Part shown: piece after piece, positions 1,663 through 55,100 of the stretch
Numbering within the stretch: the first letter of the stretch is position 1
Layout of the letters: each line of letters begins with the position of its first letter
NCBI GenBank assembly: GCA_024679065.1
Contig: JAGIQG010000026.1
Span: 19,096,001-19,160,000 of the forward strand
Origin: Sphyrna mokarran
Taxonomy: Eukaryota
Direction: 5' to 3'
Length of the DNA: 64,000 bases
Notes under the pieces: model-generated
The model's input: only the letters and a program-made list of their open reading frames with translations
The model's database searches: none
Told to the model about the DNA's origin: nothing
Position numbers and translations under genes: made by a program

Positions 1663-2180
1663 TCACTCCCTCAGCTCTGCACTGGAGTATCCACCTTCAT
1701 TGCTCAAGTGCTAGAGTGGGACTTAAACATGGAACCCACTGATTTCTCTGATGGGGTGTTATCCAGGGTTCAATGTTGTACAAGTCACTAAGGAGAAGTT
1801 CCCTGCTCATCTTCGAATATTGATGTGAAGATGCCAGCATTAGACTGGGGTAAGCACAGTAAGAAGTCTCTCAACACCAGATTAAAGTCCAACCAACTTA
1901 TTTGATAGTAAACCCACGAGCTTTCAAACGCTGTTCCTTTGTCAGGTGTGTGAAAAGTTCCAAAAACTTGTGGGTTTACTATCAAATAAATGGTTGGACT
2001 TTAACCTGGTGTTGTGAGACTTCTTACCATCTTTGAATATTGCTAAGGGATTATTTACACTGAGGGCAAACAGGGCTTCTGTTTAATTTCTCACCTTAAT
2101 GAACAACACCTCTGCCAGCGTCAATCTGGACTTTCTGTTTGAGGTTCTGGTGGGACTTGAACCCACGACCTTATGTTCAG
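1662..2180 (-). mobile_element. DeuSINE (SacSINE1-like) fragments, one interrupted by the Penelope-like insert
   Basis: CACTCCCTCAG..CTGCACTGGAGT...GTGGGACTT.AA and GTGGGACTTGAACCCACGACCTT match the antisense tRNA head/Deu-domain as recalled; more remnants ~9780-9960 and ~24230-24400. Confidence 0.55.
1823..2027. mobile_element. Penelope-like element termini in fold-back arrangement with 15-bp TSD
   Basis: Inverted copies of CAAATAAA..GTTGGACTTTAACCTGGTGTTGTGAGACTTCTTAC; flanked by CATCTT(C/T)GAATATTG at 1808-1822 and 2028-2042. Confidence 0.75.
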
Positions 2181-14808: not shown

Positions 14809-17033
14809 GTAAGACTAGATACACAGTCTGCATTTCAAGATGGGGTGCCAAGCAATAGTTCCCTGTCTTTTTGAAATGGACTATGTCAGAAATATCCTTA
14901 TCAAACTATTTGTATGGAAATATTTGACATTTTCATTGATTTTTGGAGTGATATTCCCTTGAATACGGAAGATTGTAAGTTATATTAATTTGGATTGTTC
15001 TGATGATTAAAGGACTTGATAGGATGGACGAGGTGAATTTTGTCTGCTGAGGGGGTTTGAAACAAGGCTGAATAATCTTTAACGAGCAAGATCATTCAGT
15101 GGTAATGTTAAGAATTTGATAATGGAAACATAGACTACTCTTCCCCACCTACTACAGGGAAGGATTGATTGTTTTGGCTTTATGCAGAGTTTTTTCAGTT
15201 TGTCACCGGGGTTAAATGAAGAGAGAGGGAAACTTGTGGAGTATTTGGCACTGAATGGGGTGGCAGAGTAGTTGGCACTGCTGCCTCTCAGTGTCAGGGA
15301 TCCAGGTTTGACTCCCACTTGGGTCACTGTCTGTGTGGAGTCTGCACATTCTCCTGGTGTCTGCATGGGTTTCCACTGGGTGCTCCAGTTTACTCCCACA
15401 GTCTGAAAGACGTGCTGGCTAGGTGCATTGGCTATGCTAAATTCTTCCGCGTGTACCCAAACAAATGTCAGAGTGTGGCGACTAGGAGATTTTCACAGTA
15501 ATTTCATTGTCGTATTAATGTAAGCCTACTTCTGATACTAATAGATAAACTTTGGCCTTGTGATTGGGCTGAACAGCCTGGCATTGTGCTGTCAATATTC
15601 TTTTTTAAAAATCCCATTGCTATTACAAGCTAATTTTGGTGGTTGAAGAATCCTGGTCAGAACTCTGCCTTTTTTTGTTACAGTAAGGCGATGAAATATA
15701 TACTTGTGCTGGAGCAATTGCACAAAACCATGGCTCAACATGTCATTCAAAGAAAGAAATGGTTAAACAATGCAGCCAACCTTCCATTCTGCAGTAGACT
15801 ATTCATTTGATAGTGTCAAAACCTTGAGGTGGGACATTGCTGTATCTTCTCAAATGTAATATGGTCACCACACAAAAAAAAACATTGCCATGTATTGCAG
15901 CATTCTGGAACTATAGATACTGTTGTCTCCACTGCATCTACAGTGACATTACCATATTGCCGATTTTCCCCCCACACCCCAATTCTGACCAAAATTCAGT
16001 TGCCCTCATAAAGCAAATCATTACAGATTTTTACTTTAAAAGTTTAATGCTAATAAATGTAAACTTGGTGGGGGGAAGAGCTGGCAAGTTGTGTTTTTTA
16101 TTTTGTAGCTTTGAGCTGCTGGTAGCTTGCACTTGACTATCCCATGCAATGAGGCAAGGTGTTCCTGGATTGTGATCTTTGCCTTCAGAGCTTGCGTGCA
16201 CATTCAATATCTGCTTAATCTTCAGCAGTCATGCTTTTGGAGTTTGTCCCATGCTTGTGCCCGTGCTGTAAGTCGTTTACAGTTCTTAGTCATTGCATCA
16301 AAAAACAGCCATTTGTAAGTCTTGAATCTACCAGGAATCAAAGGCCTGCTCTTGTTGCTATTCTGGTTTGATGGTAGTAGTGCTTCATAAACATCTGAAG
16401 CAAATTTACTTGTCTACAAGGGATTTAATTTTCTAGTCTGTACACTTCTATATTGCACAATACAAGAAAAAAATTGACATCAGCAAACTGCACTCTGCTT
16501 GGGTAGATTTCCGGTAACAAAATCAAGGTCCACCAATAATTCTTGCTTGCTTTGCATATTTGCAGGAGGTTAAAGATTATTACTGTCACATGTAGGTTTA
16601 CATTAACACTGTAATGAAATTACTGTGAAAATCCCCCAGTCTCTAGAAATCTGGCACTGGTTCTGGTACTCTGAGGGAAAATTTAGCATGGCCAATGCAC
16701 CTTAACCAGCATGTCTTTGGAATATGGGAGGAAACCTACGCAGACACAGGGAAAACGTGCAAACTCCACACGGACAGTGACCCAAGCAGGGAATCAAACC
16801 CAGGTCCCTGGTGCTATGAGTCGGCAGTGCTAACCATTGTGCCATTTGAAGGGTTAGAATGCCTTATTTGGTTTAATAGTGTTCATCACTCCCATAAGTG
16901 CCCTGAGCAGCTTACTTTTATTGGGCCTGCTATTTTTTACTTGTAAGTAACCCAAGAGAGTATAAATAGTATCTTTGAGACCCGAACTCTTACCCTCTTG
17001 TCTTTCACACATGTGCTTATTTTGTTTTTCCAG

Positions 17034-18649: not shown

Positions 18650-19485
18650 CATTTACAGGATGCAAGACTGGGCGGAGAAGTGGCAGATGGGCTTCAACGC
18701 GGATAAATGTGTAGTGGTCCATTTTGGCAGGAATAATGGGATGAAGGAGTACAATATAAGGGGTAGGAGTCTTAGCTGTGTTGTAGAGCCGAAGGATCTT
18801 GGGGTCCGGGTCCATAGGACCCTTAAATCGGCCTTGCAGGTGGAGGAAGTGGTCAAGAAGGCGTACGGTGTACTGGCCTTCATTTATCGAGGAATTGAGT
18901 TTAGGAGTCAGGAGGTAATGATGCAGCTCTCTAAGACTCTTGTCAGACCCCACTTGGAGTACTGTGCACAGTTCTGGTCGCCTCACTATAGGAAGGATGT
19001 AGAGGCTATTGAAAGAGTGCAGAGGAGATTTACAAGGATGCTGCCTGGATTGGGAGGCAGGCCTTGGGAAGATAGGTTGAGGGAGCTGGGACTGTTCTCA
19101 CTGGAGAGACGTAGGTTGAGAGGCGACCTGATAGAGGTTTATAAAATGTTGAGAGGGATAGATAGGGTGGACTCTCAGAGACTATTTCCCCCGAGCTGAA
19201 ATGGTCACTACGAGAGGACACAGATTTAAGGTGCAGGGAAGCAAATACAGAGGGGATGTTAGGGGTAAGTTTTTCACTCAGAGGGTGGTGAGTGAATGGA
19301 ATCGGCTGCCGTCGGAGGTGGTAGAGGCAAACTCGCTGGGGTCTTTTAAAAGACTTCTGGATGAGTATGTGAAACGAATGGGATAGGGGGTTATAGATAG
19401 GTCTGTGGATTGGTAGATATAAATGTGATTGGCGCAACTCGTGGGCTGAAGGGCCTGTTTGTGCTGTAATGTTCTATGTTCTATT
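18650..19485 (+). mobile_element. CR1-clade LINE 3' fragment, young
   Basis: DWAEKWQMGFNADKC...RPHLEYC...LFP then MVTTRGH...FFTQRVV; single frameshift; short 3' UTR ending (TTCTATG)n. Confidence 0.95.
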
Positions 19486-22049
19486 GAAAAGTTAAGCTTA
19501 CTTATTAGTCACAAGTAAACTTACGTTAACATCGCAATAAAGTTACTGTGAAAATCCCCCAGCTGCCACACTTCGCCTGTTCAGGTACATTGGTCATGCT
19601 AAATTCTCTTTCAATGTACCTAACCAGCATGTCTTTTTGGACTGTGGGAGGAAACCCACACAGACACAGGGAGAACATGCAGATTCCATACAGACAATGA
19701 CCCAAGCCAGGAATCAAACCCAGGCACCTGGCACTGTGAGGGAATAGTGCCAATCCCCATGCTGCCCATTAATCCCATGTTGGGATTTGCTGATTGTTTT
19801 TCTAAAGGACCAGATCACAAATTTAACACAATCTAAAACTTTCAGCCACCCCAAGCATGAAACCATTTGTCCTTTGACTTGGACCTAACTAATTGTTCTG
19901 GAATTTGACAATCCATTGCCTATGACCTATTTAAGTATGACTCTCAATAGTTAACACATCTTCAAATAGTGTATGTATATTTTTTAAAACATCTATGGCT
20001 GTTTTTGTCAATTTTAGAAATAATTTGTCACCCAGTGTAGAATGCATTTTCTTTAAACCAAGACTTTTTACATATTTTATCAGGGTTGGGTAACTTATGG
20101 TATGAATGAACCACTTTAGCATTGTGAACAACTTTTTAAATGTTGCAGAACCTGAATGTTCAGGTGGAAGTCAATTTCTACTTGTTATGGAACATGGTTC
20201 GTGTCCATTCCAAGGATGCATACAGTTATTTTGCACCCACTCCATAAAGTGTTCCCGTACCTTTTTGCAGTGTACTTTTTAAAAAGATCTTGATGTTTAA
20301 ATGCTACAGTTAAAAGCACAGTTTAAAATTTGAGTTTGCAGTGTTATCGAGTAATAAGTGGCCACAGATTCACCATCCCAGATGTTTGAATAATTTTAGT
20401 TGAAAATAACTTGCCTCTTCTCGCCAATGCAGATAATAAGACTTTTTACATATATATTTAATTAACAAACATGATACCAAAGAGGCAAGCACTCTGCTTT
20501 ATGTTTTTACCATTTCACCAATAAACATGTAGCAGATTTAAAATTTGCATGATTCAACATATGGAGGGGCCATTGACTGATTGGAAATTGCCTACATCAG
20601 CTCTGACAATTTTTAGCCACTTCATCCTCTAGCCCTATTTTAATATTTTTCCCCCTTCAGATTCTAATCCAATTCTCAAATCTGATCCACCACGCTTATT
20701 TAAGTAGCACATTACCAAAATCAGCAAGTTGTTACGATCTGCTTTGATCTTTGGACCGATATCCTTAAATTGCTGTCCCCGGAACTTGTTGAAGCTTCTG
20801 CCACTTAAAGCAGATTCCCCTTATTTAATGAGTTTTTTTAATGCTCCTATTAAATCTCTCCTTTTTTAGTCTAAAGTGAAAAGCCACCACTAATCTGTCA
20901 TTTTTTTAGTTGGTCTCTTCCACATCATAGAATACCGACAGTACAGAAGGAAGCCATTTGGCCCAATGAGCCTGTATCGACCACAATCCCACCCACACCC
21001 AATTCTGATAATGCCCCCAGGTTTACCATGCTCATCCCCCTGACACAAGGTCAGTTTAGCATGACCAATCAACCCAACCCACACCTTTTTATGACGTGCT
21101 CTGAATTGAGCATAATTTTCCACCTGAGGCTCCAGCAGAGTTTTTATATAAAGACTTACCATAACTTCCTTTTCTTTGCATTTCCTTATAATAAAGCCAT
21201 GAATTCCTAACATTTTTTATCTCTAACCATTTCCGCAACTTGTCCTATCACCTTGCAATAGTGATGTATGTAACCCCCTCCCAGGTGATGTCTATGTCAT
21301 GTGAATGAGTGTTGCAATGAGTTGCCCAATAATACTTTATTACTCAATAGCCACATCTGTATTGTCACTAACCAAATATAGTTGTATATTGAGCAACACT
21401 CAGCTAGCAGGTTCATTTGTCAAAAAATTTCCATTAAATGTGAAATGGGCACAATCATGTAGCATACATCATGGGAACATTCCGACCAACCTGACCATAT
21501 ATTCACCTCCATGCAAATACATATTGAATAGTGACAATTTCTGCCACAAGAATTCCAAAGCTTCAAAACTCGCAATGATTGCCCTCTGGTCATATCGAAC
21601 ATCTTAGATCCTCTCAAATTTTAGACAACATTTAGAAACACAGAAAATAGAAGCAGGAGTAGGCCATTCATTATGATATGCCCTATTAAATATAGGACAT
21701 ATTTAATGTCCCAATCCTCTCTCCTCTCACATCCTTTGATCCTTTTAGCCCCAAAAACTATATTTAATTTCTTCTTGAAATCAATGCTTCCACAATTTTA
21801 AGTACTATGATTATATTAACCCATCTATTCCCATGAAACAAAGCTGCAAGTACTGAGCTTTTTTTAATTTTCTCTAATTAGGCAGCAGAATCTCTAAGTT
21901 CCTACTGCACTCTTTCTGAAACCTTCCTATTGTTTGGCACTTGATTTCACTAACTGAACCTGTCTTGTGGTTTAATTTATATTTCATATTTGGTACACTT
22001 TGTGATTTTAAACCTGCAATTTTTTTTTTTGAAAAAACCATTTTACTAA

Positions 22050-22332: not shown

Positions 22333-22524
22333 CAGTTGCAAATATATTTGGGGTCTATCCTGTATTATCCAGTGCAGGCATTCCTTACTTGTACTGTCCC
22401 TCTCTTGGACTGTTAATGTTAAGCAGTGTCCAGGAGAGCAAGTTGTATAAATACTTTTCCAGGAACATCTGCCCATCTTTTTTTAACTTGCAAGTCTAAT
22501 TCCTGTTAACACACATATTTTTTT

Positions 22525-24064
22525 TTTTAAGCAACACAGCACGGGAAACAGGCCCTTCGGCCCAACGAGCCCGTGCCACCGTAATACCAAATACATTATC
22601 CTATTTTAATATTCCTATATAATAATATATATATTAATCCTAATTTGGAAAATTTTCACCACAGGGACAATTTGTTTCCCAATCAGCCTAAGAGCGAATT
22701 TTTGGGTTGTGGGAGGAAACCGGAGTGCCCGGAGAAAACCCACGCAACCACGGGGAGAACGCGCAAACTCCCGCAGACACCGGCCCAATTCCAAGTGTCT
22801 GCACAGCCACATCGATAGTCTCTGAGCTGTCATGGTGCCCTTCAGGTGGTCCACATAAAGCACTCATATACGACATGAGGTACCAGGCAACCCATGAATC
22901 AACATCCAAGAGCTGTACCCGCACCACCTGCCGAATGCGTGCTCAAATTATGGACGAATTACCTGTGGAAAAAAGCCGTAGTTAAACAGTCCTAATATAT
23001 CCCTCTATCTGCATACCGCTCATGTGGCTGTCCAAGAGACCCTTAAACAGCCCCAGCGTGCCTGCTCCCACCACCTTACTCGGCAGTGCATTCCACACCC
23101 CCACTACCCTTTGTGTGAAAAACTGCCCTCTAATATTCGTCTTATACATAGCCCCCCTCACCCTAAGGCCATGACCCCTCGTCCTATCCATTTCTGAAGG
23201 TGGAAAAAGTTTACCTCCATTTACTCTATCTATACCCCTTATAATCTTATACACCTCTATGAGATCCCCTCTAAGCCGACGTCTTTCAAGGGAAAACAAC
23301 CCCAGTCTATCTAATCGTTCCTCATAGGACAGTCCTTCCATACCAGGCAGCATCCTGGTAAACCTCCTCTGCACTCTCTCCAAGGACTCCACATCCTTCC
23401 GATAGTACGGAGACCAGAACTGGGCGCAGTATTCCAAGTGAGGCCTAACCAAAGTTGTATACAACTGCAACATCAAACTCCTACTCTTATATTCTATACC
23501 CTTTTCTATGAAAGCTAACATACTATACGCCTTCTTTGTCACCTTCTCCACCTGTGAGGACACCTTCAGAGACTTGTGAACCTGCACCCCCAAGTCTCTC
23601 TGCGTCTCTATGCTCCTTATAGTTTTACCTTTTATCCTATAATTCTCTTCTACATTTTTCCGGCCAAAATGCATCACCTCGCATTTTTCCGGATTAAATT
23701 CCATTTGCCATCTATCTGCCCAATCTACCAACCTGTCTATGTCCTGTTGTATTGCCTGACACTGCTCTTCTGTACCCGCCAATCCAAGCATCTTGGTGTC
23801 ATCAGCAAATTTGCTGATCTCACCACCTACCCCTACTTCCAAGTCGTTTATGTAGACCACAAATAGAAGAGGACCTAGTACTGAGCCTTGTGGCACTCCA
23901 CTAGTGACAGGCTTCCAGCTGGAAAAAGAGCCTTCCACTACTACCCTCTGTCTCCTCCTTCCGAGCCAGTTTTCGACCCATCTACATACCCGACCCTGTA
24001 TCCCATGCGCCTTCACCTTCTCTATCAGTCTACCATGAGGAACCTTGTCAAACGCCTTCTGCAT
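22525..24064 (-). mobile_element. CR1-clade LINE, 5'-truncated, intact 360-aa RT C-terminal ORF, extended 3' UTR
   Basis: QKAFDKVPH, GVPQGSVLGPLLF, KFADDTK, LVRPHLEYC, LFSLERRRLRGDLIEVYK and FFTQRVV motifs; 3' tail GGGCCGAAGGGCCTGTTTCC..GCTG. Confidence 0.96.
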
Positions 24065-24609
24065 GTTTTACTGGGAACAGCCTTTTATCACTTTGCAATA
24101 TAGCTTTAGCATTGGAAATCTGATTAATAGCAGAGAAGATGTTTATGTAACTGATTTGTGTTGTCAAATACCACAACTATTGTACATTTAAACACCGACT
24201 ATCTATGGGATCAATAGTCAATTTTTTTTTCCACTCTTTGTGGGTGCTGCTGGTTGAGTAATGTTGAACTCGTCAGGAAAACTCTCTGCTCATTTTAACA
24301 CATACCTGGCCAGGTAGTCAATCTCTGAGTGACATCCCATCTGAATGTTGGCAGCTCCACAATTGCAGTCTAACCAGGTGCTGGGGGATGCTTCTAATAA
24401 GTGACACACACATGTGCCTTGAATAATCCTTCACTGGATTTCTATAGTGAGCTTTCAATTAAATTTGTTTTTTTTAAGAGCAGAAATCTCGTAGTATTAC
24501 GGGATCAGAAGATAATGCTGTTTTGTACCACAGGGCAGAACCATGGTTAGCACTGCTGCCTCCAGTGCCAGGGACCCAGGTTACATTCTGGCCTCTGTGC
24601 AAAACTGTG

Positions 24610-24827
24610 CCTAACCCTCTCTCCACTCTCATTGTCTGTACCTTTTTTAAGATTTGATTACCTCTAAAAACTTGCATTCCAACCATTATCTTGCAGATTG
24701 AGTTTGTCAATATATGTCTTGTTTGTGAATACAACTCCCACTCACCTGATGAAGAAGCAGTGCACTAAAAGCTTATGCTATCAAATAAACCAGTTGGACT
24801 TTAATCTGGTGTTGTGAGACTTCTTAT
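24610..24827 (+). mobile_element. Penelope-like element terminal repeat fragment
   Basis: CACCTGATGAAG...AAAGCT..TGCTA.CAAATAAACC..TTGGACTTTAA motif; other copies at 1-57(+), 32200-32432(-), 42880-43185 (inverted pair). Confidence 0.72.
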
Positions 24828-25095
24828 CAAATGCAGCGCAGACAGACAGTAATCTCCCTGTGACTGCGTGGGTTTCTTCCAGGTGCTCCTGTTTCCTTCC
24901 ACACTCCAAAGATATGCAGGTCAGGTGGAGTGATCATACTAAATTGCTCTGTGTTGAAAAACATGCAGATTAGGTGGATTAACCATGGTAAATTTGGGGG
25001 GGAAATGGCAAAGGGGGTATAAAATGCCCTTTCAGAGGGTCACTGTGGATTCGATAGGACGAATGTTCTCCTGCATTCTCCTGCATCTCCTTTGG

Positions 25096-25267
25096 CCTGC
25101 AGCAGTTGTAGATGCGCCAAGTTTGGTGGCGTTTAAGAGGTTAGTTGATAAGTATATGGAAGAGAAGGGAATGGTTTAGTTTGGAGGGGCATTGCTTTTT
25201 ATATTGGTCGGCGCAACATCGAAGGCCGAAGGGCCTGTTCTGTGCTGTTATGTTCTATGTTCTATGC
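25096..25267 (+). mobile_element. Very short young CR1 3' end inserted in a SINE tail
   Basis: AAVVDAPSLVAFKRLVDKYMEEKGMV* + tail (TTCTATG)n; near-identical to 51688-51810. Confidence 0.9.
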
Positions 25268-25439
25268 ATTGCAGGGATTCTATGGTTTTGATTTTGTTGT
25301 TGAAAGCGAAACCAATCTCTTTGGAAGCCAGCGATTGAAAATGTATATACCACCCAAGACTTGTTAACAGATTTGAAAAACATAATGCCCTGGGAACAGT
25401 ATCTTCACTTATATTCCGTATTTTCCACTCACTTTATCA

Positions 25440-25790
25440 TTTGATTTTAATTTATTATTGTCACAGGTACTGGGATTTAGAGAAAAGTATTGTTTCTTGC
25501 ATGCTATACAGACAAAGCATACTGTTCATTGAGTACACAGGGAAGAAGGAAAGGAAAGAATGTAGTGTTATAGTTACCAAATAGGGTGAAGAGAAATATC
25601 AACTTAATATGTGGTAATTCATTCAAAAGTCTGATGGCAGCAAGGAAGAAGCTGTTCTTGAGTCAGTTGATATGTGACCTCAGATCTTTGTATCTTTTTT
25701 CCCGATAGAAGAGTGTGTCCAGATGCATGAGATCCTTGATTACGCTAGCCGCTGTTCTGAAGCAGCAGAATGGAGACTCTGTTTGACCTG
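25440..25790 (-). mobile_element. Rex1/Babar-type LINE 3' fragment
   Basis: Minus frame KRYKDLRSHIN*LKNSFFLAAIRLLN matches the Rex1/Babar C-terminus; tail TGTGACAATAATAAA. Further copies ~7915-8065, 32740-33010, 39805-39960, 40575-40940. Confidence 0.75.
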
Positions 25791-27189
25791 CATACATAAT
25801 CCTGACTTCCCAGTCAGCTATGCTCATTGTTTTTAATTCTCTATTTTGCTTCCACTCTGAGTTGTTTTTGCACACCAATGACTTTCAAATGCAATTTCGT
25901 GAGGCAGCATCTTTTTATCTTTTAGATGGTCCCTCTTTGGATTCCACAATTTCAGATCTTAACCTCAATGTTACCCTTTGGATGGCAGCTGTTTGGTGAC
26001 GTCCACTTTAACATACACTGCCTCTCAGCTACTTTCCATTTACCACCTTGTTTTGTCTTTTCTTCACTCCGTTTTCTGTCATTTTTATCTTCAGACTATC
26101 ACAAATCTTCCTGCTTGTCAGTTCTGTTTTCCACACCAGCCTTACTTTAAAACTGTTCAATCTCTACATCCTTCCACTTCTGACAAACGTCACCTAACCT
26201 GAAAGGCTAACTTTGCTTCTCTCTCCACAGATACTGCTTGGTCTGTCGAGCATTTTCTACCACTTTGACATTTTTCATCACTTTATTGGTTTAGGATGCT
26301 TATTGTAAAATCCTTACAACACAGAAGGAGGTTATTTGGCCTATTGAGTCTGCACCGACCACAATCCCACCCAGGCCCTATTCCCATAACCCTTCATATT
26401 TATCTTGCTAATCCCTCTGACACTAGATTAAATTTAGTACGGCCAATCAACCTAACCCACACACCTTTGGACTGTGGGAGGAAACTGGAGCACCCAGAAA
26501 AAGCTCATGCAGTTACAGGGAGAATGTGTAAACTCTACATAGGCAGTAAGCCGAGGCCACTGGCGCTGTGAGGCAGCAATACCTGTGCTGCTCTGATGGT
26601 GGTAATAGCTTTGGTCAGATTAAACCACCTGTTGTAAAGGAAATGAGTTTTGAATTGTTGTAGTTTGCAAACCACCCCCTTTTTAAATCTTCTTTTTGAG
26701 TCTGAGACGAAAACAGAACGTGATCTTTAGTGTTACTGATGTATGTCAGTAATGTTGCCATATCCTGGAGATAAAACTCACACAATTTAATTTTTAAGGA
26801 GATCATGAGAAACAATTTGAGATTTTTGGAATACTTGATGGTTTGCTTCCCTTTAGAGATGAAAAAGATAAGCTGTGATACTAGTCCTCAAATGCCTTCA
26901 GCTATTTAGTAAGTTGTCTGGGCACTGGCATGGACCTGTTGGGCACATGGTCTGTTTCTGTATTGTTTGTAGACGGGACTTCATTTTGCAATAATTCTCT
27001 TCAGGTCCATTATAGACAACAATGCTGGCTCAATTGGAGCTGATTAGTGAAGTTGGTGATCCCAGGCCAATCTCCATTTTTATAAGTTCTGCGTATCCTC
27101 TATCCACATGAGTTTGACCTTGTGGACATTTTAGATTCTGTTTCAATGCAGGTTCAAAAGAATGATTACTAATCACCAAAAAGCCTTTT

Positions 27190-29580
27190 TTTCCTATTGT
27201 AAGGTAGCTTCGCATAATGTAACATTCTATTTAATTAACTTTCTCATTAATGACACGTCTAGCAATCTGTTTCCTCTTGCAATGGCCCAACTTTTGAACA
27301 TTTCTTCCCTAAGATTTATTTTATGCACATTCATGTCATTCTTCACTAAATTTCCCTGTTTGAGTCCCTCCAGCCACGATGGCATGCATCCTGAGCAAAT
27401 TCACAAATACCTTCCCTGATTGTGACCAATCATCTCTCCTAAACGTCTCATAGCATGAAACAGGCCCTTCGGCCCAGCTTGTCCATACCACCCAGTTTTT
27501 ACCACTAGGCTACTCCCAATTTGGCCCACATTCCTCTATACCCATGTAACTGTGTAAATGCTTTTTAAAAGACAAAAATTGCATCTGCCTCTGGCAACTT
27601 GTTCCAAACACTCACTACCCTCAATGAAAAAAAAATGCACCTCTGGATCCTTTTGTATCTCTCCCCTCTTACCTTAAATCTATGTCCTCTAGATTTAGAC
27701 TCCCCTACCTTTTGGGAAAAGATGTTGACTACCTACCTTATCCATGCCCCTCATTATTTCACTGCTACTTGTCCAAATGGAAGCCAATATCCCTTCAGCT
27801 ATGTCTTCATTGCTTTTCTAGCTCCAAGTAATTGCCCCTACGTCCAAAATGCATCATTAGTTCCCTTCTCTCCTTTTTGCAGACTAATCCTCACTTTCCA
27901 TGGGAAAGCTGAGACACAATCAAATGACTCACTTGGAGTATTGTGTACAGTTCTGGTCGCCACATTATAAGAAAGATGTGGAGGCATTGGAGAGGGTGCA
28001 GAGGAGGTTTACCAGCATGTTGCCTGGTATGGAGGGAAGGTCTTATGAGGAGAGACTGAGGGATTTGAGGTTGTTTTCATTAGAAAGAAGGCAGCTAAGA
28101 GGAGACCTTGTTGAGGCATATAAGATGATCAGAGGATTAGATAGGGTGGACAGTGATAGCCTTTTTCCTTGGATGGAAAAAGCTAGCATGAGGGGACATA
28201 ACTTTAAATTAAGGGATGGTAGTTATAGGACGGATGTAAGAGGTAGGTTCTTTACCCAGAGGGTGGTAAGGGTATGGAATGCCCTGTCTGCTGCAGTTGT
28301 AGATGTGCCAAGTTTGGGGGCGTTTAAGTGGTCAGTGGATAGGTTTATGGATGAAAAGGGATTGGTTTAGGTTAGAGGGTCATTGCTTTTTCTCAATTGG
28401 TCGGTGCAACATCAAGGGCCGAAGGGCCTGTTCTGCGCTATACTGTTCTATGTTCTATGACTCCAGCTTCTGACTTGTTGTGGTACTGTTGGGTTGTCAT
28501 CTGACATGAACTATATTTTTCTTAATTCACATTTAGAATTAAATCCATCATTTTCACTACTTTTCTTTTTGTTACTGATTGCATCTTGTCCCTGGCCACT
28601 TGCTTGGTGAAAGGTTTGACCCAAACTTGAGTTTGAACTCTGCAATCCATCCTTCAACAAGACTGTTCAATTCTGCCTCTGCCTGTACTTTGCCCACAGC
28701 TTCCCATTGACAATTTTCCTTAATGTCAAAGGCCAGCTCCCTGTATCCTGCTCTTCACTCCTCCCATTCTCACTGATTTTTACATTGGTTCCTTTTTCTC
28801 CAGTGCAATGAGTTTACAATCCTCATCCTACTCTGACCTTCCTGAGCCCTAGCTCTGCAACCTTGTACCACAAATTCCATATTTTGACCATAAACTTGTG
28901 TGCATCATTCACAAGCCTCCAGTCCGGCGTGTGATTGAATATTCTCCACTTGCCTCAATGAGGACAGGCCCCAAGAAGCTCAACATCATACAGAACAAAA
29001 CAGCCCACTTGATCTATAACCCTTCCACAAGCATACGCTCCTTCCACTACTGAGTCACAGTGACAGCAGTGTATCCCATCTACAGTATGCAGTGCAGGAA
29101 CTCACCAAGGCTCCTATGTGGTACCCTCTAAACTCAGAAGGACAAGGACAGTAGATACCAAAAAAAAGGGTTTGGACAGTTGCATGGGTATAGATGGATG
29201 TGGGCCAAATTGGGAGTAACTTAGTGGTAAAAACTGGGTGGCATGGACAAGTTGGGCCTTTTTCATGTTGTAAACCTCAGTTATGGACAGATATAGCATG
29301 TCAACTTCAAACACAGCAAAAACTTTTAGGAGGGATGATTTGTCACAATCAGGGAAAGTGTTTGTGAATTTGCTCAGGATGCATATTATCGTGGCTGAAG
29401 GATTTCAAATAGGGAGATTTGATGGAGAATGGCATGAAGGTGCATAAAAAATCTTAGGGAAGAATAATGTTCAAGAGTTGGGTCATTGTCAGAGGAAACA
29501 GACTGCTAGGAATGTCATTAATTGGAAAATTTAATTAAATAGAACGCTACAGTATACAAAGCTACCTTACAGTAAAAAGA
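27190..29580. repeat. Imperfect long inverted repeat: arms ~27190-27565 and ~29161-29580
   Basis: e.g. GCATCCTGAGCAAATTCACAAA (~27387) vs TTTGTGAATTTGCTCAGGATGC (~29361); TGTAAGGTAGCTT vs AAGCTACCTTACA. Confidence 0.9.
27920..28460 (+). mobile_element. CR1-clade LINE 3' fragment
   Basis: HLEYCVQFWSPHY...FFTQRVVRVWN; tail GGCCGAAGGGCCTGTTCTG + (TTCTATG)2. Confidence 0.95.
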
Positions 29581-30782
29581 GTGAGGATATTTTAATTATT
29601 AATACCACCATCCAGAAGTTCCCATCCAAACCATTTGCCATCCTGATTTGGAAATATATTGGCATTCCTGCATTGTCGCTATCACTGGGTCAAAATTCTG
29701 GAATTTCCATAAAATTAATTTAAAAAATTAAATCATCCCTGGCCTTCCTCCTTTTTTTTTTACTTGGTATTCATTACAGTTATAAATAGTTGTCATATTA
29801 CTGGATTAATTTAACTATGAAATGCAAGTTTAGCTCTTAATAGTAAATGAACGTAGTCTTTCTGTTACCAGAAGCTGCAGAATTGTACTCATGTCCTCCT
29901 TTGGGGAAGAAAACTGCACATCCACAAAGGATTGTCAACTCTGATTGAAAGCATTCTGGAGTTTTCTACCTGAGATGGAGACTTGTAAACAAAGACAGCA
30001 TTTGGAGGCCATCCCTCAATGGTAGTTAGTCAGCTGTTCAATGGCCTCTCAACAGTTCTCTAGAGGATACCATGCGAGAGAAGTGCTCAAGGGAAAATGA
30101 TTAGTTTGAGCAAGTTAATTTAAATGTTTCAACTAGTTTAAAATCTTTGCAATTGCTTGCATTAATGTACTTCTGTGTACAATGAACTTCATGTTATCAA
30201 ATATTGATATCTGATTAATGAGCTAACTTAAGCAATTGAGATGTTTTCAGGAAGGCAAACAACAATGGCACATTTGAAGGTATCTTAATTTTGCAATTTT
30301 TTCAAATATTATTTTCTATCTTGCAAGGCTTTTTTTGATGCAAAACAAATTTCCATAGCACCAGGGATATATTAGAATTGGTGAAGAAATACCTTCAGGT
30401 TCTACAATGCCATATCCAAACAATATCATACTTCTATAATATGATGTATCCAAACAATTCCTCCTTTAATTAGAGATGGACAATAAGTAAATCTTCTAGA
30501 TCCCATTTATGGAAGGTATTAGAGTCTTAGATCTGAACCCCAAGATACATTATGAAGGCAGACTAGACCCTAACAATTTCTCTATTTGGCATAAATAAAA
30601 AAGGCTTCCTCACTCCAGGAGTAATTTCACTGACAAATTAGAGATCCTTTATTAAAACAAACTGATCTTGAAATATGAAAGGAAATCTCTAATCTCTAAT
30701 TTATCACTTACAGTTCCAAATGAGCAATATTCTTCTTAGACACACAACTCCCTTTAAATATAGTTAACAATCACAAATATAA

Positions 30783-32150
30783 GTGGAGTGATCAGCAAGA
30801 TGGCAGGCGATACAAAGATGGCTGGACTTGTGGATAGTGAGGAGCACTGTCAGGCGATGCAGCAGGACATAGGCTGGTAGCTTGGGCAGATAGATGGCAG
30901 ATGGAATTCAATCCTAAAATGTGAGGTGATGCATTTCAGGAGAAAGAATGTAGGGGGGAGGTATATGATAAAGGGTAGAGCTATTAAGAGTATAGAAACG
31001 CAGAGGGATCTAGGGGTGCAGGTGAACAAGTCTCTGAAGGTGGCAGAGCAAGTGGAGAAGGTTGTGAAGAAAGCATATGGTATGATAGCCTTTATAGGAA
31101 GAGGTACAGAGTACAAGAGCTGGCCTTTAATGTTGCAGTTGTATAAAACATTGGTTAGACCTCATTTGGAATACTGCGTCCAGTTCTGGTCGCCTTACTA
31201 CCGGAAGGACGTGGAGACTCTGGAGAGAGTGCAGAGGAGGTTTACAAGGATGCTGCCTGGTATGGAAAGTCTGAGTTACAAGGAGAGGTTAGGCAAATTG
31301 GGGCTGTTTTCCTTAGAAAGACGTAGACTTTGAGGAGATCTAATAGAGATGTACAAGATTATAAGGGGTATAGATAGAGTAAACAGGGTTAAGCTTTTTC
31401 CTAGGATGGACTCAAATAGCACAAAGGGTCATGGGTTTAGGGTGAGGAGGGGTAAGGTATAATTTGGATGCTAGAGGGAGTTTTTTCACAGAGGGTGGTG
31501 GGGGTATGGAATGCGCTGCCAAGTAAAGTGGTGGAGGCAGGCATTCTGGAGTTATTTAAGAAATACTTAGATGGGCACATGAACAGAATGGAATGGAGGG
31601 GTATAGAAAACTGATTTAAAATAGGGATCATGAGCCTTGGGAGTCTCTGGGAAGTGTGTAAATAGATGATGATATTGATGTACTTGTTTTTATCCTACAG
31701 GTGCTTTGGTCCATCTTGTTGTCTAACAAGGGGCATACATGCGATGGGTCGTGAGAGGGCTGCTCTTGGGTTTTTTTTCGAGAGTATCCTAGTGCTTCAC
31801 GTCGTTAGTGTACGCTTGACCTGGACCATTTGATGGGCAACACGACAGCTCAGTGACTATCGCTGTGCTGTGCAGATACATGGATTTGGGCCTGTGTCTG
31901 TGGGAGTTTGCGCATTCTCCCCGTGCTTGCGTGGGTTTTCTCCGGGTGCTCCGGTTTCCTCCCACATCCCAAAGTTGTGCTCTTAGGCTAATTGGCAAAA
32001 CAAATTCTCCCTAAATTGTCTCAAATTTGGTTTTTAATCCATAGATCTATAAACATAGACAGGGATCATGGGTAGAGGTGGGAACATTGGGGTGGCAGCG
32101 CGGGCTCGTTGGGCCGAAGGGCCTGTTTCCCACACTGTTTTGTTCTTTGT
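30783..32150 (+). mobile_element. CR1-clade LINE, 5'-truncated, sister subfamily of 22525-24064, extended 3' UTR
   Basis: SIETQRDLGVQV..SLKV..QVEKV.KKAY, RPHLEYC and FSLERRRL motifs with stops/frameshifts; same 3' UTR modules and tail. Confidence 0.94.
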
Positions 32151-34039
32151 TTTTTACTTGCTATATGAGTGTAGACAGACTTGGAGTTTTCAGGAATATA
32201 GAGTAAGAAGTCTCAACACCAGATTTATTTGGTATCACGAGTTTTTGAATTGTTTCCCTTCATCAGGTGAGTGGAGAGTTGGGTTCACAAACAAGGCAAA
32301 TGTAGACAAAGACTCAACTTTAAGATAATGGTTGGAATGCAAGTCTTAACAGGTAATCAATCTTTACAGGTACAGACAATGCACGTGGAGAGAGGGATAA
32401 TCATAGGTTAAATCACCTCTTTAACCTGTGATTAAAAAAATATACTTGCACACTTACATCATAAGGAGGGGGGCTGGTTATGGAGAAGGGAAATGATTCA
32501 AGTGAGATACTAGCAAATGTTTGTTCTCATGGCATGGAACTTCTTACTTTTCCACACTGCAGAGTGAGAAATACTGCATTTGGGACGAAAAGGAAACCAT
32601 AAGTGTTTTTGAGGAAATGGTTTTTTACTTTCACTTCCTTTTCTCTCTCAAGTACTGAGCATAATTCACTGGAACCAGCTATGTTTTGAAAAAAAGAATG
32701 CAAGTCTGCCTTTATCAATTTTTTTTTAAACTTGGGGATTATGCACTTATTGTGTTCCTTGGTGACTGTGGGTGGGAAGGAGAGAGCGTAGGAAAGGAGG
32801 AGAATGCAGAATTGAGTGTTACAGTCAAAGCCAAGGTGTAGAGAAAGATCAACTTAATGCGAGGTAGATCCATTCAAAAGTCTGATGACTGCAAGGAAGA
32901 AAGTTGTTTTTGAATCAGTTGGTACGTGACCCCGGAATCTTTTTCCCAATGGAAGAGAGAATGTGTGGAGTCCTTGATGATGCTCCCTGCTTTTCTGAAG
33001 CAGTGGGAATTGTGGGCACTTGGACTCCTTTAGTGCTACTTCTGGTGGTGCAGTTGGCAGGAATAGTCTCCAATATGTTAACTCTGGTGTGACAATGGGC
33101 GTGGGTGGATTTCAATCCTTCCATTATTGCTTTTATATAAAAGCCAATCCCTTAATTGTGGCTAAAAATTTAGTCTTTGACTCAACGCTTTATATTTGTA
33201 AATATGGCCTGGAATTCTCCCAGCTATTTACACCAGTGGGATCAGTGATGCATCCCTGCCATGAGTTTCCTGGCTACATAGGGTGGCTTCAGTAGGAAAT
33301 CAGTAACTTCATTGCAGTGTTACTTGTGACAAATACAAGATCCTGTCACCTGCAATTGGCATACCACCTCAAACCACTGAAAAATAACTAAAGGGAGGCC
33401 AGAGAATATTGCTAGGTTATAGCCATCTAAAGTATTGCTGCAATAAACTGACAGACGTAATGCTGAAGACTTTTAGTACTTCTTTGGGGCAGCTGTTCAA
33501 GGCCACAAGGAACTCATAAAGTTCTGAGCACTGCACCAAGTTCCGAGAACATTGGTTTAGTGTGCAGACACTTTTTACAGTGGCATACAGTTTGCAAAAG
33601 ATTATGAAATAACCTGCTGGCTAAAACACACAAATATTTTAACTTTATGAAATGGGAGGAAAGATATTTAAGTTGCGAATAGAAATACTAGCAGCAAATA
33701 TTGTGTAAAATGGGGCCACTGTAGCATTTAGAAAGTAGAAACTTCAGTCAGTGATCACTGTAAAAGGCTTTGTTTTGATCCTGTGGTTGAGTGGGTTATG
33801 TCATTTGAAATTTCAACCAAAGAAATGTTCCTACTTCCTTGGTGCAAGTCCCAGATTTTTCCGTGGATAAACATACCATCTGGCAGAACATTAGCCTCCT
33901 GGCAAGGTTTTGTATCTGATTTTTGTTTTTTAAATTTGATCTGACAGGGCTATAATGCGGCATAATATAGGGGAAGAAAAATCAACCAGAGTTTCTGCTC
34001 TTAGTCAATTAATGTTACGTCTATGCAGACAAAAGTCTG

Positions 34040-45260: not shown

Positions 45261-47127
45261 CACCATTAAGTGGCGCTGTGGGTAATATCCTTACCAGAAG
45301 CTCCAGATTTAAGTCCTACTCCCAACTTAATGGCCAAGGAAGGTGAATTCACAGCGCAGCCAAACCGGTTGAGTATCAGCTTGTACATTCTTCCAGCACA
45401 CACCCATGAAACTGGTCAGTGCAGGAAAGATTTCTATCAACCTTGTGATGGAGGGAGGTTCTACCATCACTATCAATGATACAACATGTATAGAATTGGA
45501 TCCCTACAGTGCAGGAAGAGGCCATTGAGCACCAACTCTGACCGAGCACCTTAGTCAGGCCCTATGCCCATAACAACACAAAGTTACCCTGCTAATCTCC
45601 CTAACCTATACATCTTGGAACACTAAGGGGTAAATCAACCTAACCTATGCATCTTTGGACTCTGGGAGGAAACCCACACAAACATGGGGAGAATATGCAA
45701 ACGCCACAGTGACCCAAGACCGAAATTGAACATGGTGCTGTGAGACAGTAGTGCTAACCACTGCCATTATGCAAGTGTGCATGTTGCCACAGCAACTTGG
45801 AATCCTTGGACAACTGGTATGGATCAGATTAGTGTTGACAAGGTGGGATTTGATCTCCATTCTGGCAGAGATGACCTGAGTCTTTGCACCGCCCCCCCTC
45901 CTCCCAGTGGTGCTGTGGGTCAGACCTTGCCTTTGGGCAGAGAACTCTCAGATATTACAAAGTGCCACCCAGATCCTGACTGTTGCTGACCTCTGCTCCA
46001 CTGATAGAAAATTGACTGAGGCTATTAGAGGTTTCTTAAGTACTTGTGAGTAAACCTTTTTACAAGTTTTTTGTTTTAGAAATGAGCATTTTCTCCAGCC
46101 AAATAACTCAAACTGCTACATCTGGGCAACCACTTATATGCTCCCTTCCACCCTCCTCACTCCAGTTAATTATATTCCTTTCTAAGTTTGGAACTATCTC
46201 CCAAAGTCATGATGTGACTCTTGCTTCAAGGGCTTCTAACAAATTTAACCTTTCACCAGACTTACAGTACCTTTTTATCTACCCCACCATCCATATATCC
46301 AGTCTTTAATTCAACATCTGCCTTTCCTGTCCTTCCCAAGGTGAAGAAGAAGAAACTTGTATTTATATTGTGACTTCCACAAACTTGATGATACACAGCA
46401 GTATGATTTGCAGTCAGTTATTTTTATTCATTCAAGTGATGTAAGCATTGCTGGGTAGGCCAGCATTTGTTGCCCATCCCTAATTACCCTCGAAAGTGAT
46501 GGTGAGCAGTTTTGTTGAACTGCTGCAATCCATGTTGTGTGGGTACTCCCACAGTGTTATTGAGGAGGGACTTCCAGGGTTTTAACCCAGCGACAGTGAA
46601 GGAATGCAACTAATTATGTTTCCAAGTCAGGATGGTGAATGGCTTGGTGGTGATTTCTAGATGGTAGTGTTGCCTTGAATCTGTTATTCTTGTCCTTCTC
46701 AATGATAGCGGTTTTGGGGTTTGGAGCTGCTGGTGAAGGATCTTTGGTGTACTGTAAAATGTTAGGAAACTCCTACGCCCCAACAATAAAGTTCTTGGTA
46801 TTTGAGCAAATGTAAACATTATTCTTATTTTCTAATCAGGTCTGTTTTGGATGGTTAGTTCATGTTGAACCACTTGAATGTACAATATTAATATTGTACA
46901 ATGGTTCTTTTATTGTGAACTCTTTATTGTATCTAGGAAGTAGAATCAACAAAATGTGGATTTTATTGCACGTGGGCTGTACTTGTTTTTCTGGTGTTCA
47001 TTTTTTGGTTTCTCAAGACTGCAACAAATCTGAGCTGTGTACAGTAGTTGAGGAGAACATGAACCAAACTCACAACTAACCTGATAGCGATAGCGAGCAA
47101 TTCCAAATTGATCTGTTAATGTGATAT

Positions 47128-47447
47128 TAGGGCAGCACAGTGGGTTAGCACTGCTGCCTCTTAGGGTCAGGAATCTGGGTTCAATTCCAGCCTTTGGTGA
47201 CTGTCTGTTTGTGTGGAGTTTGCACGTTCTTGTCATTTTTGAGTGGGTTTCCTCTGGGCACTCCAGTTTCCTCCCACAGTCCAAACATGTGCATGTTAGG
47301 CTGATTGGCCATGCTAAATTGACCCCAGTGTTGGAGAATTAGCAGGTTAAATATGTGGGGTTGCAGGAACAGTGCCTGGATGAGATTGTGATCTATGGCT
47401 GATTCTATGGGCAAAATAGCCTCCTTTTGCACTAAAGAGATTCTATT
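47128..47447 (+). mobile_element. tRNA-derived V-type (HE1-like) SINE with CR1-type tail; representative of ~18 copies
   Basis: GTTAGCACTGCTGCC head, B box GGTTCAATTCC, core GTGGAGTTTGCAC.TTCT...TTTCCTCCCACAGTCCAAA, tail GGGC..AAT.GCCTCCTT.TGCACT..GATTCTAT. Others ~2690-2937, 6560-6790, 10677-10905, 17725-17945, 20925-21090, 26305-26590, 41705-41900, 43965-44190, 45490-45768, 52540-52730, 53905-54250, 54630-54925, 55590-55930, 58168-58420, 58495-58680. Confidence 0.9.
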
Positions 47448-52100: not shown

Positions 52101-55100
52101 TAATCCACTCCTTTAAATGTAACTCAATGGAAATGAAGATCATCATTAACTTGATTGTTGCTTTTTCAGATCACAGGCCATTGATTTACCTGGTTTAAAG
52201 AATGAAGATGAACCAGGCCTTGGAAGAAGGCGATCAACCTCTGCTTCGGTAAAGATCTACGTTCCATGACAATTTTGTTATGCCAATGAAAATAATGGAA
52301 TTAAAGTGAATGGCACATTGCGTCTGTGACAAGACTCAAAGTTAGAGATAATGGCAGGAATTGAAGGCATTATTGGTTGCTTGGTTACGCTAGGATTTGC
52401 CCTGGCCCAGAGGTGGTGGTGGTATTACAATGTCCAAAAGAATCTGTTTTATAGTGGGATTGTCACTGGTGATCTCTCCCAGCAGCTTGGGAAATCTGCT
52501 AGAAACTATCATGACACTCATTTGTATCCTGTTAATGGAATCATAAAATCATTAGTTACGAAGGTCATTCAGCCCATCAAATCTGCACTGACTCTCAAAG
52601 AGCATCCTAGCCCATACTTCATGCATTTACCCTGCCAATCCCCTAAACTACACGCCTCGGGAATGTGGGAGAACGTGCAAATTCTACACAATCATCCAAG
52701 GTTGGAATCGAACCCATGTTCCTGGCATTGTTGACGGGTGCAGGTGAAGGTCCATCCACTCAATTCTGTGCAGTGCCACTAGTAAAACATGCAGGGAAAC
52801 ACATGGAAATATTTGCGGCGTGGAGCTGGTGCTGGAAATCCAGTGCTAGGAGACGCGCCTGGGGCTAGACACCTACGGGTTGCACTAATCCGGTGTGTGA
52901 GCACACCACAAATGGAGGCAAATGCATCACATTTATGAATAGATTGGCTTCCTGATAAACCTGCCCGTATGTGGAATGGGATTTGTATTTCTGCCCTAAG
53001 TGCCATGGAAAATCCTGATTGACAAAAGTGGGGGAAAAGGCCTTTGTTTGACCCAGATTTCTTCCTCTACCCACGCGCATTACAGTTTCTGCAACAAACT
53101 CAAGACCAGCTACTTAAAACACTCTTTTTTTATCCACAATTTACAACAGTTACTTGGTGTGCTTCTAAACAAGTAACTCTGGGGTTACTTGTTATCAGAT
53201 AAAAATGTTTGTAACAAACTTTGTATTTGTTACAAAAATTGATTTCTTTTTCTCTGTCTTTCAGATAGTCAAGTCGAATGTCACGTTTCACAAGCTGTTC
53301 AAAGACATTGATGAGAATGTGATTGACAGTAAGTTTCTGTATCTGGAATGGATCAGGGTTGAGGCTTTCCAAGGCTATTGTACATCTGCATGCCAGTGTT
53401 CTGTAATATCCATGTCCTGGCTTTATAGAAACCACTAATAATGAAACATGGGGAGCTGCCATTATACACGTATCAACTTTAGCTTGATCTCAGTCTGAAT
53501 ACTATTTTGATTGTGGCATCTATGACCTTTCACGTTCTGAATTTGTGTAACTCCTTCATCTAACTAGACCTATTTCCTAATAGGTTTCAAATGTGCCTTG
53601 CATAAGGAAGTCCCATACCACGGCAAAATGTACGTGTCTGAAAACTACATCTGTTTTTACAGCAGCATTTTGAAAGAAACAAAGGTACGTCTTTTTAAAG
53701 AAAAAACCTTAAATTTAGCACTCTGAATAAAATTTATGGCCACAATGATGGAAAACAATCATTTTGGTGATGGACGATGGTTAGATCTGATATCAATTTG
53801 TGTAAATATCACCTTAAGTCAGATGATACATAAGGCATTCAATGACGACTTCTGCGGCGAGGGGATGTTTCTACTCCATCAGCTATTAAATTAGTGACCT
53901 AGGTATTAGAATCATAGAAACCTACAGTGCAGAAAGAGGCCCTTTGGCCCATTGAGTCTGTACCGAACACAATCCCACCGAGGCCCTACTCCCATATCCC
54001 TATGTATTACCTACTAATCCCTCTAAGCTAAGGATCTTAGGACACTAAGGGGCAATTTTAGCATGGCCAATCAACCTAACCCATACATCTTTGGACTGTG
54101 GGAGGAAACCAGCGCACCTGGAGGAAACCCACACAGACACAAGGAGAATGTACAAACTCCATATAGACAGTGACCCGAGCCGGGAATCGAACCCAGGTCT
54201 CTGGAGCTGTGAAGAAGCAGTGCTAACTACTATGTTAGTGTGCCGCCCTTTGATTCCTTTGTTCCCTCTTCATTGGAATAAAGAATGCATGGTGTTGATC
54301 CCACCAGAAGGAACTCTTCATTTGTAGACAACAAAATAAAAGAAGACTTATTCCAACTTTACAGATCAAAGAAAAAGAAACTTTATTACTCTAACACTTA
54401 AGTCCTCATCCTGGGCCATTCCAAGCTCCCATAAACTCCAGCAGTTTCTTATTTATACTGGGTGGCTGACCACCACATTTTTGTCATTGGTTACATAGTT
54501 TACTGGGTCAGCTGACTCTTACAGCATGTTACCATTGGTCACGCTACAACAGATCCAATGTTATCATTGGAATCGAGATGTAATCAAGAAGAGTCGCATA
54601 GATGAAATATAGTATAAAGTAGCAGAACACAGATCATAGAATCCCTACAATGCAGAACAAGGCCATTTGCCCCATTAAGTCTGCACCAACAGCAATCCCA
54701 CCCACATCCGATCCCCACATTTACCTTGCTAGTTCCCTGACACTAAGGGTCAATTTAGTATGGTCAGTCAACTTCATCCACACATCTTTGGACTGTGGGA
54801 GGAAATCGGAACACTCAAAAGAAACCCACCCAGACATGGGGAGACTCCACACACTGACTCGAAACTGGAATTGAATCTGGATCTTTGGTGCTGTGAGGCA
54901 GCAATGCTAACCACTGTGCCACCATTTAATTAGATGTTAATTTATTGTCTTCTCTCCCTCTATATTCAGCTCGTTATTCCTGTCACAGCAGTGATTTCGA
55001 TGAAGAAGCAGAACACAGCCCTTCTAGTCCCCAACGCTCTGTCTATCAAGACCGTGGAAGGAGAGAAGGCAAGTTTTGTTTTTCCAATTCCATTAATTCA

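Follow-up and report, generated by a model that had tools for sequence, protein, structure and literature searches.

An autonomous CR1 lineage with a V-SINE, very probably captured once, in its 3' untranslated region

A lineage of CR1 long interspersed elements (LINEs) whose 3' untranslated region (UTR) contains part of a V-type short interspersed element (V-SINE) was analysed from two copies, A and B, in a 64,000-nucleotide (nt) stretch of Sphyrna mokarran DNA (contig JAGIQG010000026.1, positions 19,096,001 to 19,160,000, forward strand), referred to below as the window. The module consists of the remnant of the transfer RNA (tRNA)-derived head of the SINE, its V core and a post-V segment, and it precedes the LINE's own tail. 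Comparison of the sequences indicates that the V-SINE was, with very high probability, captured once by a CR1 LINE, and there are good grounds for confidence that its V domain has been selectively retained there. The overall reading that we favour, and hold to be rather more probable than its alternatives together, is that the captured SINE lost its promoter and that its core has been kept, likely as a cis-acting folded RNA that would aid copying of the LINE.

Organisation of the two copies

Both copies are CR1 3' ends with a long UTR, of approximately 450 nt in A and 530 nt in B from the stop codon of open reading frame 2 (ORF2) to the end of the element. This agrees with an earlier note on the window made without database searches, and the five ordered blocks listed in that note were located in both copies, with the AG of an acceptor-like site at 22964/63 and 31699/700, block 2 starting at 22913 and 31762, and block 3 starting at 22853 and 31822. 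The other three CR1 ends in the window are short, their tails ending 76-80 nt past the ORF2 C-terminus. The elements are presumed to be CR1 from their ORF2 motifs, ORF1 type and tail. The ORF2 parts of copies A and B are 77% alike, and their UTRs are 75% alike from block 2 onward. Their parts, and three elements used for comparison, are as follows.

22518..24058 (-): copy A, subfamily A; 5'-truncated CR1 with a short poly(A) end, 98.6% to a near full-length copy in L110
22982..24058 (-): copy A, ORF2 from the reverse transcriptase region to the C-terminus (3' part only); stop codon 22984-22982; the matching region of L107 scores for Pfam RVT_1
22959..22981 (-): copy A, acceptor-like T-rich tract and CAG/G, putative; AG at 22964/63
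22841..22962 (-): copy A, pre-head segment with block 2 inside; predicted long stem-loop
22781..22840 (-): copy A, V-SINE tRNA head remnant; A box altered, T arm and B box deleted near 22790
22701..22780 (-): copy A, V core, 80 nt; family A differs from the free-SINE majority at 11/80 sites
22663..22700 (-): copy A, post-V SINE segment, by alignment to free SINEs
22518..22580 (-): copy A, CR1 3' tail hairpin and poly(A); 0/45 differences between the A, B and C majorities
30779..32151 (+): copy B, subfamily B; 5'-truncated CR1 with a TTCTTTG-type repeat end, 93.8% to a long copy in L102
30779..31619 (+): copy B, 3' part of ORF2, with indels in this copy; stop codon 31617-31619
31683..31704 (+): copy B, acceptor-like T-rich tract and CAG/G, putative; AG at 31699/700
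31701..31834 (+): copy B, pre-head segment with block 2 inside; predicted long stem-loop
31835..31893 (+): copy B, V-SINE tRNA head remnant; T arm and B box deleted near 31884
31894..31973 (+): copy B, V core, 80 nt; family B differs from the free-SINE majority at 7/80 sites
31974..32013 (+): copy B, post-V SINE segment, by alignment to free SINEs
32014..32093 (+): copy B, hypervariable spacer; 53/78 aligned columns differ between A and B; unalignable between subfamilies, lengths varying widely
32094..32151 (+): copy B, hairpin of the CR1 3' tail, with the terminal repeat; by alignment scores this tail belongs to the LINE rather than to the SINE
18650..19490 (+): comparison CR1 with an ordinary short UTR
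27920..28460 (+): comparison CR1 with an ordinary short UTR
53900..54240 (-): comparison free V-SINE with a whole tRNA head and a CR1-type tail

Distribution and single origin

The module is common to at least six CR1 subfamilies (A, A2, B, C, D and F), two of which are represented in the window. A 19-nt hairpin pattern had 35,200 exact matches in genome G000 and its reversed control had none. A 1-megabase (Mb) sample, composed of 100 stretches of 10 kilobases at round coordinates, contained 19 module copies against 202 free SINEs with head and core; simple arithmetic from 19 copies per Mb gives an extrapolated copy number of approximately 53,000 (Poisson range approximately 32,000-82,000). 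A 211-nt UTR stretch of copy B was matched at 98-100% in all 40 scored copies (the best 40 of 1,345 candidates), the counterpart stretch of copy A by 26 genome matches at 85-100%, a third type, C, by 40 scored matches at 94-100% (the best 40 of 1,306 candidates), and the older subfamily D by 40 scored matches at 88-100%. Median identity of copies to their own majority sequence was 91% in D and F and 96-97.5% in B, C, A2 and A.

In a sample of 52 module copies that was not ranked by identity, the ORF2 C-terminus lies within 260 nt of the module in 40, and the remaining 12 begin inside the UTR at scattered points; the module is linked to ORF2. The scattered 5' ends correspond to the frequent 5' truncation that marks CR1 elements. 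Subfamilies D and F are linked to ORF2 as well, ORF2 alignments having been obtained from 12 D and 10 F copies. Pfam domains Exo_endo_phos, Exo_endo_phos_2 and RVT_1 scored above their cut-offs in the family A copies of L110 and L107, and an esterase-type ORF1 was seen in L110 only, where Lipase_GDSL_2 scored 29.5 bits (E 1.3e-6), below its cut-off of 32.9. The ratio of non-synonymous to synonymous substitution (dN/dS) in ORF2 was 0.12-0.16 over approximately 350 codons in A, A2, B and C, and the majority sequences of all six families contain no stop codons; ORF2 is under purifying selection, as in autonomous lineages.

A tree was built from 67 ORF2 3' ends. Among 39 short-UTR rows, 17 of the 18 module rows and one D-type row that is cut at the locus edge formed a single clade with support 100/100, the stray module row, L233, being a composite of two elements. 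With L233 and the unassigned rows removed and 16 short rows retained, the module clade again had support 100/100. A tree that counts L021, a B copy with an insertion, as a short-UTR row rejects the single clade (p-AU 0.036). The module occurs in a single clade, itself surrounded by short-UTR CR1s in the tree, and has one origin in it. Free V-SINEs are dense in the genome, and this would favour independent SINE insertions into separate LINE copies; one junction, shared derived states and one ORF2 clade over tens of thousands of copies make such insertions extremely improbable. The possibility raised in the earlier note, that the module would occur in only these copies or at differing junctions, was not borne out.

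The B-type stretch 31500-31900 is present in contigs of four sequencing runs, which bear four organism codes, with many matches at 95% or above, and A-type pieces occur in two of the runs. The matches in four runs represent at most a few close relatives, and one run may come from the source species. A metagenome match, L284, was dropped as chance, its likeness being limited to the search pattern. Further variants stand outside the tests on six families (L188:6600-7160(+), L210, L196:6356(-), L075, L234 and L207), and include a C-type ORF2 followed by a longer UTR, B types of greater age, and a C type in which the small hairpin after the CAG is intact.

The tRNA head and the direction of capture

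The SINE core had been described in the earlier note as headless, with block 3 given as a hairpin. Once the window SINEs are turned to their sense strand, block 3 aligns with the 5' end of the free SINEs, which are presumably V-SINEs of the HE1 type, and it is the V-SINE tRNA head. Aligned with the majority sequence of 97 free SINEs, it covers positions 1-51 and then has a single 18-nt gap at the T arm. The alignment score was reached by none of 3,000 position-profile shuffles for C or A2, by 20 for A and by 73 for B; a looser local alignment is weak for A, its score being reached by 206 of 2,000 shuffles. An 18-nt segment is present at the position of the gap in L153, a subfamily D copy, and the D majority sequence contains the whole head including the T arm, with 24/78 sites different from the free SINE and a mutated B box. 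F, which is likewise an old subfamily, lacks the 18-nt T arm, as do B, C, A2 and A. By the box consensus, the A box is altered in all six subfamilies; the B box carries mutations in D and has been deleted from the remaining five. The module therefore has a homologous head whose boxes are broken or deleted, followed by a V domain of approximately 80 nt that differs from the free-SINE core at 6-11 of 80 sites, depending on the family.

Tail alignment scores of the module were 54-78 against three short-UTR CR1 tails, and 44-62 (three SINEs of family 1) and 21-23 against SINE tails. Since the tail is closer to those of short-UTR CR1s than to those of SINEs, the V-SINE evidently joined the UTR ahead of a tail that belongs to the LINE itself. 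Head and V core are common to two free SINE families that differ in their 3' halves, a CR1-type tail being present in one only; examples with differing 3' halves are 15255-15550(+) and 48550-48850(-) as against 53900-54240(-) and 47125-47450(+).

The earlier note had left two routes by which a LINE lineage could hold a V domain, the capture of a SINE or service as the donor of the V-SINE core, and only the first agrees with these data. Some SINE bodies do derive from LINE 5' regions, according to the available part of one survey (PMC5786205). A donor LINE is nevertheless very improbable here, as the LINE also carries the tRNA head, decayed and whole in D, the module is limited to one clade nested among short-UTR CR1s, and V-SINEs extend to cnidarians and molluscs in the accessible text of PMC4824008.

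An independent short element arising from the head was looked for among the 52 unranked module copies, none of which begins at the head. A derivative family with head starts was likewise not found in a comparison of 140 head-start matches with 92 for an interior control, 6 of 12 inspected matches being small deletions. Copies that start at the head are no commoner than ordinary truncation.

Constraint on the module

Four-fold degenerate sites of ORF2 supplied the standard of comparison and differ between the six subfamilies by 0.04-0.45. The borders of head and core were set by homology to the SINE and not by the LINE alignment. Differences between subfamilies number 1-7 among the 80 sites of the V core and 2-11 among the approximately 60 of the head remnant. 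In the pairs A-C and B-D, which are independent and share no common branch, the V core differs at 3/80 sites against 23/129 four-fold sites (P 2e-3) and at 2/80 against 35/114 (P 1e-7), respectively; the head remnant of B-D differs at 5/59 (P 6e-4). The expectation that the UTR blocks would evolve more slowly than synonymous sites of ORF2 accordingly holds for the V core in both pairs (P<=0.002). The post-V segment and the tail are also conserved beyond four-fold sites, and the tail, identical in the A, B and C majorities, contains the hairpin typical of CR1. Block 2 is constrained at P<0.05 in 8 of 15 subfamily pairs. The acceptor block was not conserved beyond four-fold sites (8/26, 7/26 and 4/26 in the first three comparisons), and the sequence of its tract was unconstrained in 15/15 subfamily pairs. 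The statement in the earlier note that blocks had remained while spacers diverged can be kept for the head remnant, V core, post-V segment and tail, applies to block 2 in some pairs only, and fails for the acceptor block. Indels of 1, 11, 18 and 22 nt between subfamilies exclude a common reading frame in the module.

The spacer between post-V segment and tail (32014-32093; 22581-22662) evolves much faster than four-fold sites, with 26/75 columns different between A and A2, and its length ranges from approximately 35 to 150 nt.

Low divergence could also arise where the module has no function, through repeated template switching or gene conversion among LINE subfamilies or with free SINEs. Free SINEs outnumber module copies about tenfold (202 as against 19 per Mb), it has been proposed that recombination hotspots lie in conserved domains (PMC5804259, in the portion available), a few sites conflict with the ORF2 tree, and the pre-head segment of C resembles those of B, F and D more than that of A. 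In the V core, however, five states that depart from the free-SINE majority are fixed in every one of the six subfamilies; among 190 SINE-like matches, 127 have none of these states, 53 have one, seven have two, two have three, and one, which is probably a module copy, has all five. The fixation of these states in the LINEs and their rarity in SINE-like matches make conversion from free SINEs unlikely. Most variable sites of the V core moreover nest as ORF2 does, four of them grouping A, A2 and C and two adding B, with three in conflict, and because the flanking spacers have diverged each exchange would require two switches at the same borders. Exchange without function is on balance improbable, and the comparison with ORF2 argues for selective retention of the V domain.

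Predicted RNA structure

For the head and V core, the prediction is a fold like that of the free SINE, with a four-way junction followed by the V hairpin, and support from covariation is mixed. The fold from head to V hairpin is more stable than that of shuffled sequences in each subfamily (z -2.8 to -5.5; free SINE -2.2). The alignment fold has 52 pairs, which are able to pair in 305 of 312 cells, and 35 of the 52 pairs are also found in the free SINE's own fold. In the predicted layout, the 5' end of the head is paired to the initial half of the V core, closing three hairpins, and a V hairpin with an internal loop follows the junction in all six subfamilies and in the free-SINE majority. Between the free SINE and D, 39 pairs are unchanged, three changed on both sides and still pair, two were gained by two changes, two changed on one side, five were gained by one change and one is broken.

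An alternative without a junction fold, which accepts the capture as real, is that the V core is kept as a DNA-level sequence, such as an enhancer, a binding site or a means of escape from silencing, or as a protein-binding sequence. The loops are as invariant as the stems, covariation is scarce within the LINE clade, the null for the whole structure was not rejected, and the accessible part of PMC4824008 mentions proposals that the central domains of SINEs act as enhancers or epigenetically. Against it, pairs changed on both sides between SINE and LINE lie within predicted stems and include the pair that joins the head to the V core, and one stem shows two separate changes from G-U to G-C pairs in A, A2 and C. 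This alternative is unlikely in our judgement, and carries more weight than any of the others considered here.

For the 130 nt before the head, a long stem-loop is predicted (z -2.0 to -4.1); retention of its pairs was not significant in 9 of 10 tests, and no independent match to the segment, which might have disclosed its source, was found in the 1 Mb sample at E<0.01. The Rfam 15 covariance models gave no match for 31600-32200 at E up to 10.

In run X1, six contigs with a loose end at 31866 have a C-type hairpin variant that differs by five changes, all of them A-to-G, and the 19-nt pattern of this variant had no match in G000. The variant is a weak hint of A-to-I editing of a double-stranded module, in a run that may belong to another species and whose RNA status is a guess.

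The acceptor-like site

ACAGG is invariant in all six subfamilies and is preceded in each by a pyrimidine tract, in agreement with the YAG/G acceptor pattern; the tract keeps its pyrimidine content and not its sequence. The UTR upstream of the tract, which stops immediately ahead of it, has been reduced from approximately 150 nt in D and F to less than 15 nt in A and C. By sequence, a working splice acceptor is suggestive only. These same features (invariant ACAGG, retained pyrimidine content and an upstream UTR that stops at the tract) would favour a spliced terminal exon as the selected unit, in which CAG/G would join an upstream LINE or host donor to give a short non-coding or exon-trapping transcript. 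The acceptor block, however, is no more conserved than four-fold sites. RNA junctions, which the earlier note had suggested as a check, were not seen: over 31500-31900, the interval covered, no spliced joint at 31699/700 was present among the loose ends listed in contigs of four runs, one of which is probably RNA, and contigs drop rare forms. A recurrent spliced copy was also not found among 19 genomic copies that lack the tract (2 of a young B variant and 17 of other families), whose upstream sequences are unrelated and share no donor. A spliced exon as the object of selection is accordingly regarded as improbable, on a par with exchange without function.

Two of these copies, L285 and L293, start where the putative exon would start and follow immediately on ORF2-like sequence, the point of joining being different in the two; internal deletion, nested insertion and rare splicing are candidates. 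In L283, a B copy, a 5' inversion has its break exactly at the T-rich tract.

Proposed explanation

Capture may have occurred in the stem of the clade, by SINE insertion or by a template switch, and the tail of the SINE itself would have been lost. The polymerase III promoter is broken and, in most subfamilies, partly deleted. The 5' end of the head and the V core would still close the predicted four-way junction, with the V hairpin next to it, as in the free SINE. This fold might bind a host or LINE protein, including the ORF2 protein, or might shield or stabilise the RNA, and in either way could raise the copying of the RNA that carries it. Loss of the B box would keep the LINE 3' end from becoming a new SINE parasite. 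An RNA-structural role of the module in cis seems to us somewhat more probable than the contrary, and conservation and predicted folding together suggest that the module is a functional RNA element, as the earlier note had proposed.

The V domain has been conserved in SINEs for more than 500 million years, and a copying benefit of the fold would also account for its retention by them. With a little less than even confidence, we suggest as a wider interpretation that the V domain is a promoter-independent RNA element, with a four-way junction made jointly with the tRNA head and a hairpin besides, that raises the copying of any carrier; CR1 would have stolen it from its own parasite and disarmed the promoter in two steps (mutation of the B box, then deletion of the T arm), and its stems would have been re-tuned by compensatory change.

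Several points weigh against this explanation. Pair retention in the first hairpin speaks for the fold, 10-12 of 12 pairs being kept despite 10-13 changes, a result that a random-substitution null reaches in 25-2,932 of 200,000 draws; the register for this test, however, was chosen after the LINE hairpin was known. When all pairs were fixed from the SINE alone, retention was not significant, the null being reached in 1,013-3,217 of 20,000 draws. Variation among LINE subfamilies affects only 8 of the 52 pairs and is mostly one-sided, so that a sequence-level constraint, on DNA or RNA, explains the data equally well. The head remnant of the A-C pair, with 6/60 differences, was not significant in the six-family test (P 0.1). 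The position of D as the earliest branch is weakly supported, the arm-less subfamilies lying on one side of a branch with support 70/74. Evidence of transcription consists of one run, whose RNA status is a guess. Finally, the module is not needed for the success of CR1. The 1 Mb sample yielded 70 long CR1 3' ends, 51 with short UTRs, 7 with the module and 12 unassigned, under a filter biased against long UTRs, and near-identical clusters of 29 and 13 were present among 75 short ends; because short-UTR CR1s are more numerous and include these large near-identical clusters, the benefit of the module cannot be large or essential.

Relation to known systems

In the HE1/HER1 pair, the part shared by SINE and LINE is the tail. 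The module-bearing LINEs and free SINEs described here resemble that pair of sharks and rays, which is listed in a table of PMC3747384, in the occurrence, within one genome, of a tRNA-headed V-type SINE and a CR1-type LINE with related 3' tails. They differ in that the LINE holds the SINE head and V core before its own tail, a comparison made by description. MER6, a MITE (a miniature transposable element with inverted repeats) of mammals, is likewise a mobile element of another kind that captured a V-SINE, lost the head and spread the V domain (PMC6887750, in the text available); MER6 is a derivative of a non-autonomous DNA transposon whose V domain lies outside any copied RNA, whereas the carrier here is an autonomous, RNA-copied LINE in which constraint is measured against its own ORF2. 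The Vhc subdomain was described as a predicted hairpin of approximately 40 nt with an internal loop (PMC4758252), and a hairpin of like form is predicted in the V core of the six subfamilies and of the free-SINE majority. The accessible portion of that paper reports that the hairpin is not maintained within fish V domains, and mentions no junction between head and V domain. In the available text of the Repbase comparison of SINEs and LINEs, only the 5' regions of RTE and Vingi match SINE bodies, and sequences like the conserved SINE bodies were not found outside SINEs (PMC5786205); the exchange of modules between LINE and SINE is alike there, and its direction is opposite. A paper of 2016 states, in the part available, that conserved SINE domains were not found in LINEs (PMC5804259).

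RNA stabilisation, or binding of the ORF2 protein or a host factor, has been suggested for SINE central domains (PMC4824008, in part available), and the role of these domains was still called unclear in the accessible text of a 2024 paper (PMC11481361). A very high CR1 content is given for elasmobranchs in the available sections of PMC13343379. The canonical CR1 of vertebrates described there resembles the present elements in having an esterase-like ORF1 (here below the Pfam cut-off) and endonuclease and reverse transcriptase in ORF2; a SINE module in the 3' UTR goes unmentioned in those sections, and the term UTR occurs once in the text of the paper, for a 5' UTR. The 3' ends observed, those at 22518-22530 and in L031-L056 among them, were poly(A) in A, a TAATC-type repeat in some A2 copies, and a TTCTTTG-type repeat in B, C, D and F. 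Poly(A) tails are called unique to Zenon among elements of the CR1 group in the same partial text (PMC13343379), and family A, with poly(A) and an esterase-like ORF1, looks like an exception.

No description of a LINE with this 3' UTR was found in a search of openly accessible papers. What appears to be new is an autonomous CR1 lineage with a captured, promoter-dead and selectively retained V-SINE, the precedent for a V-SINE in another kind of carrier being MER6.

Significance

Constraint on the V domain inside an autonomous element would set this domain apart from polymerase III transcription and from SINE parasitism. The module supplies a built-in neutral clock, in the four-fold sites of ORF2, as well as a preserved intermediate, subfamily D, and a predicted structure for the V domain. 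In genomes of this kind, tens of thousands of sequences annotated as SINEs would be the 3' ends of LINEs.

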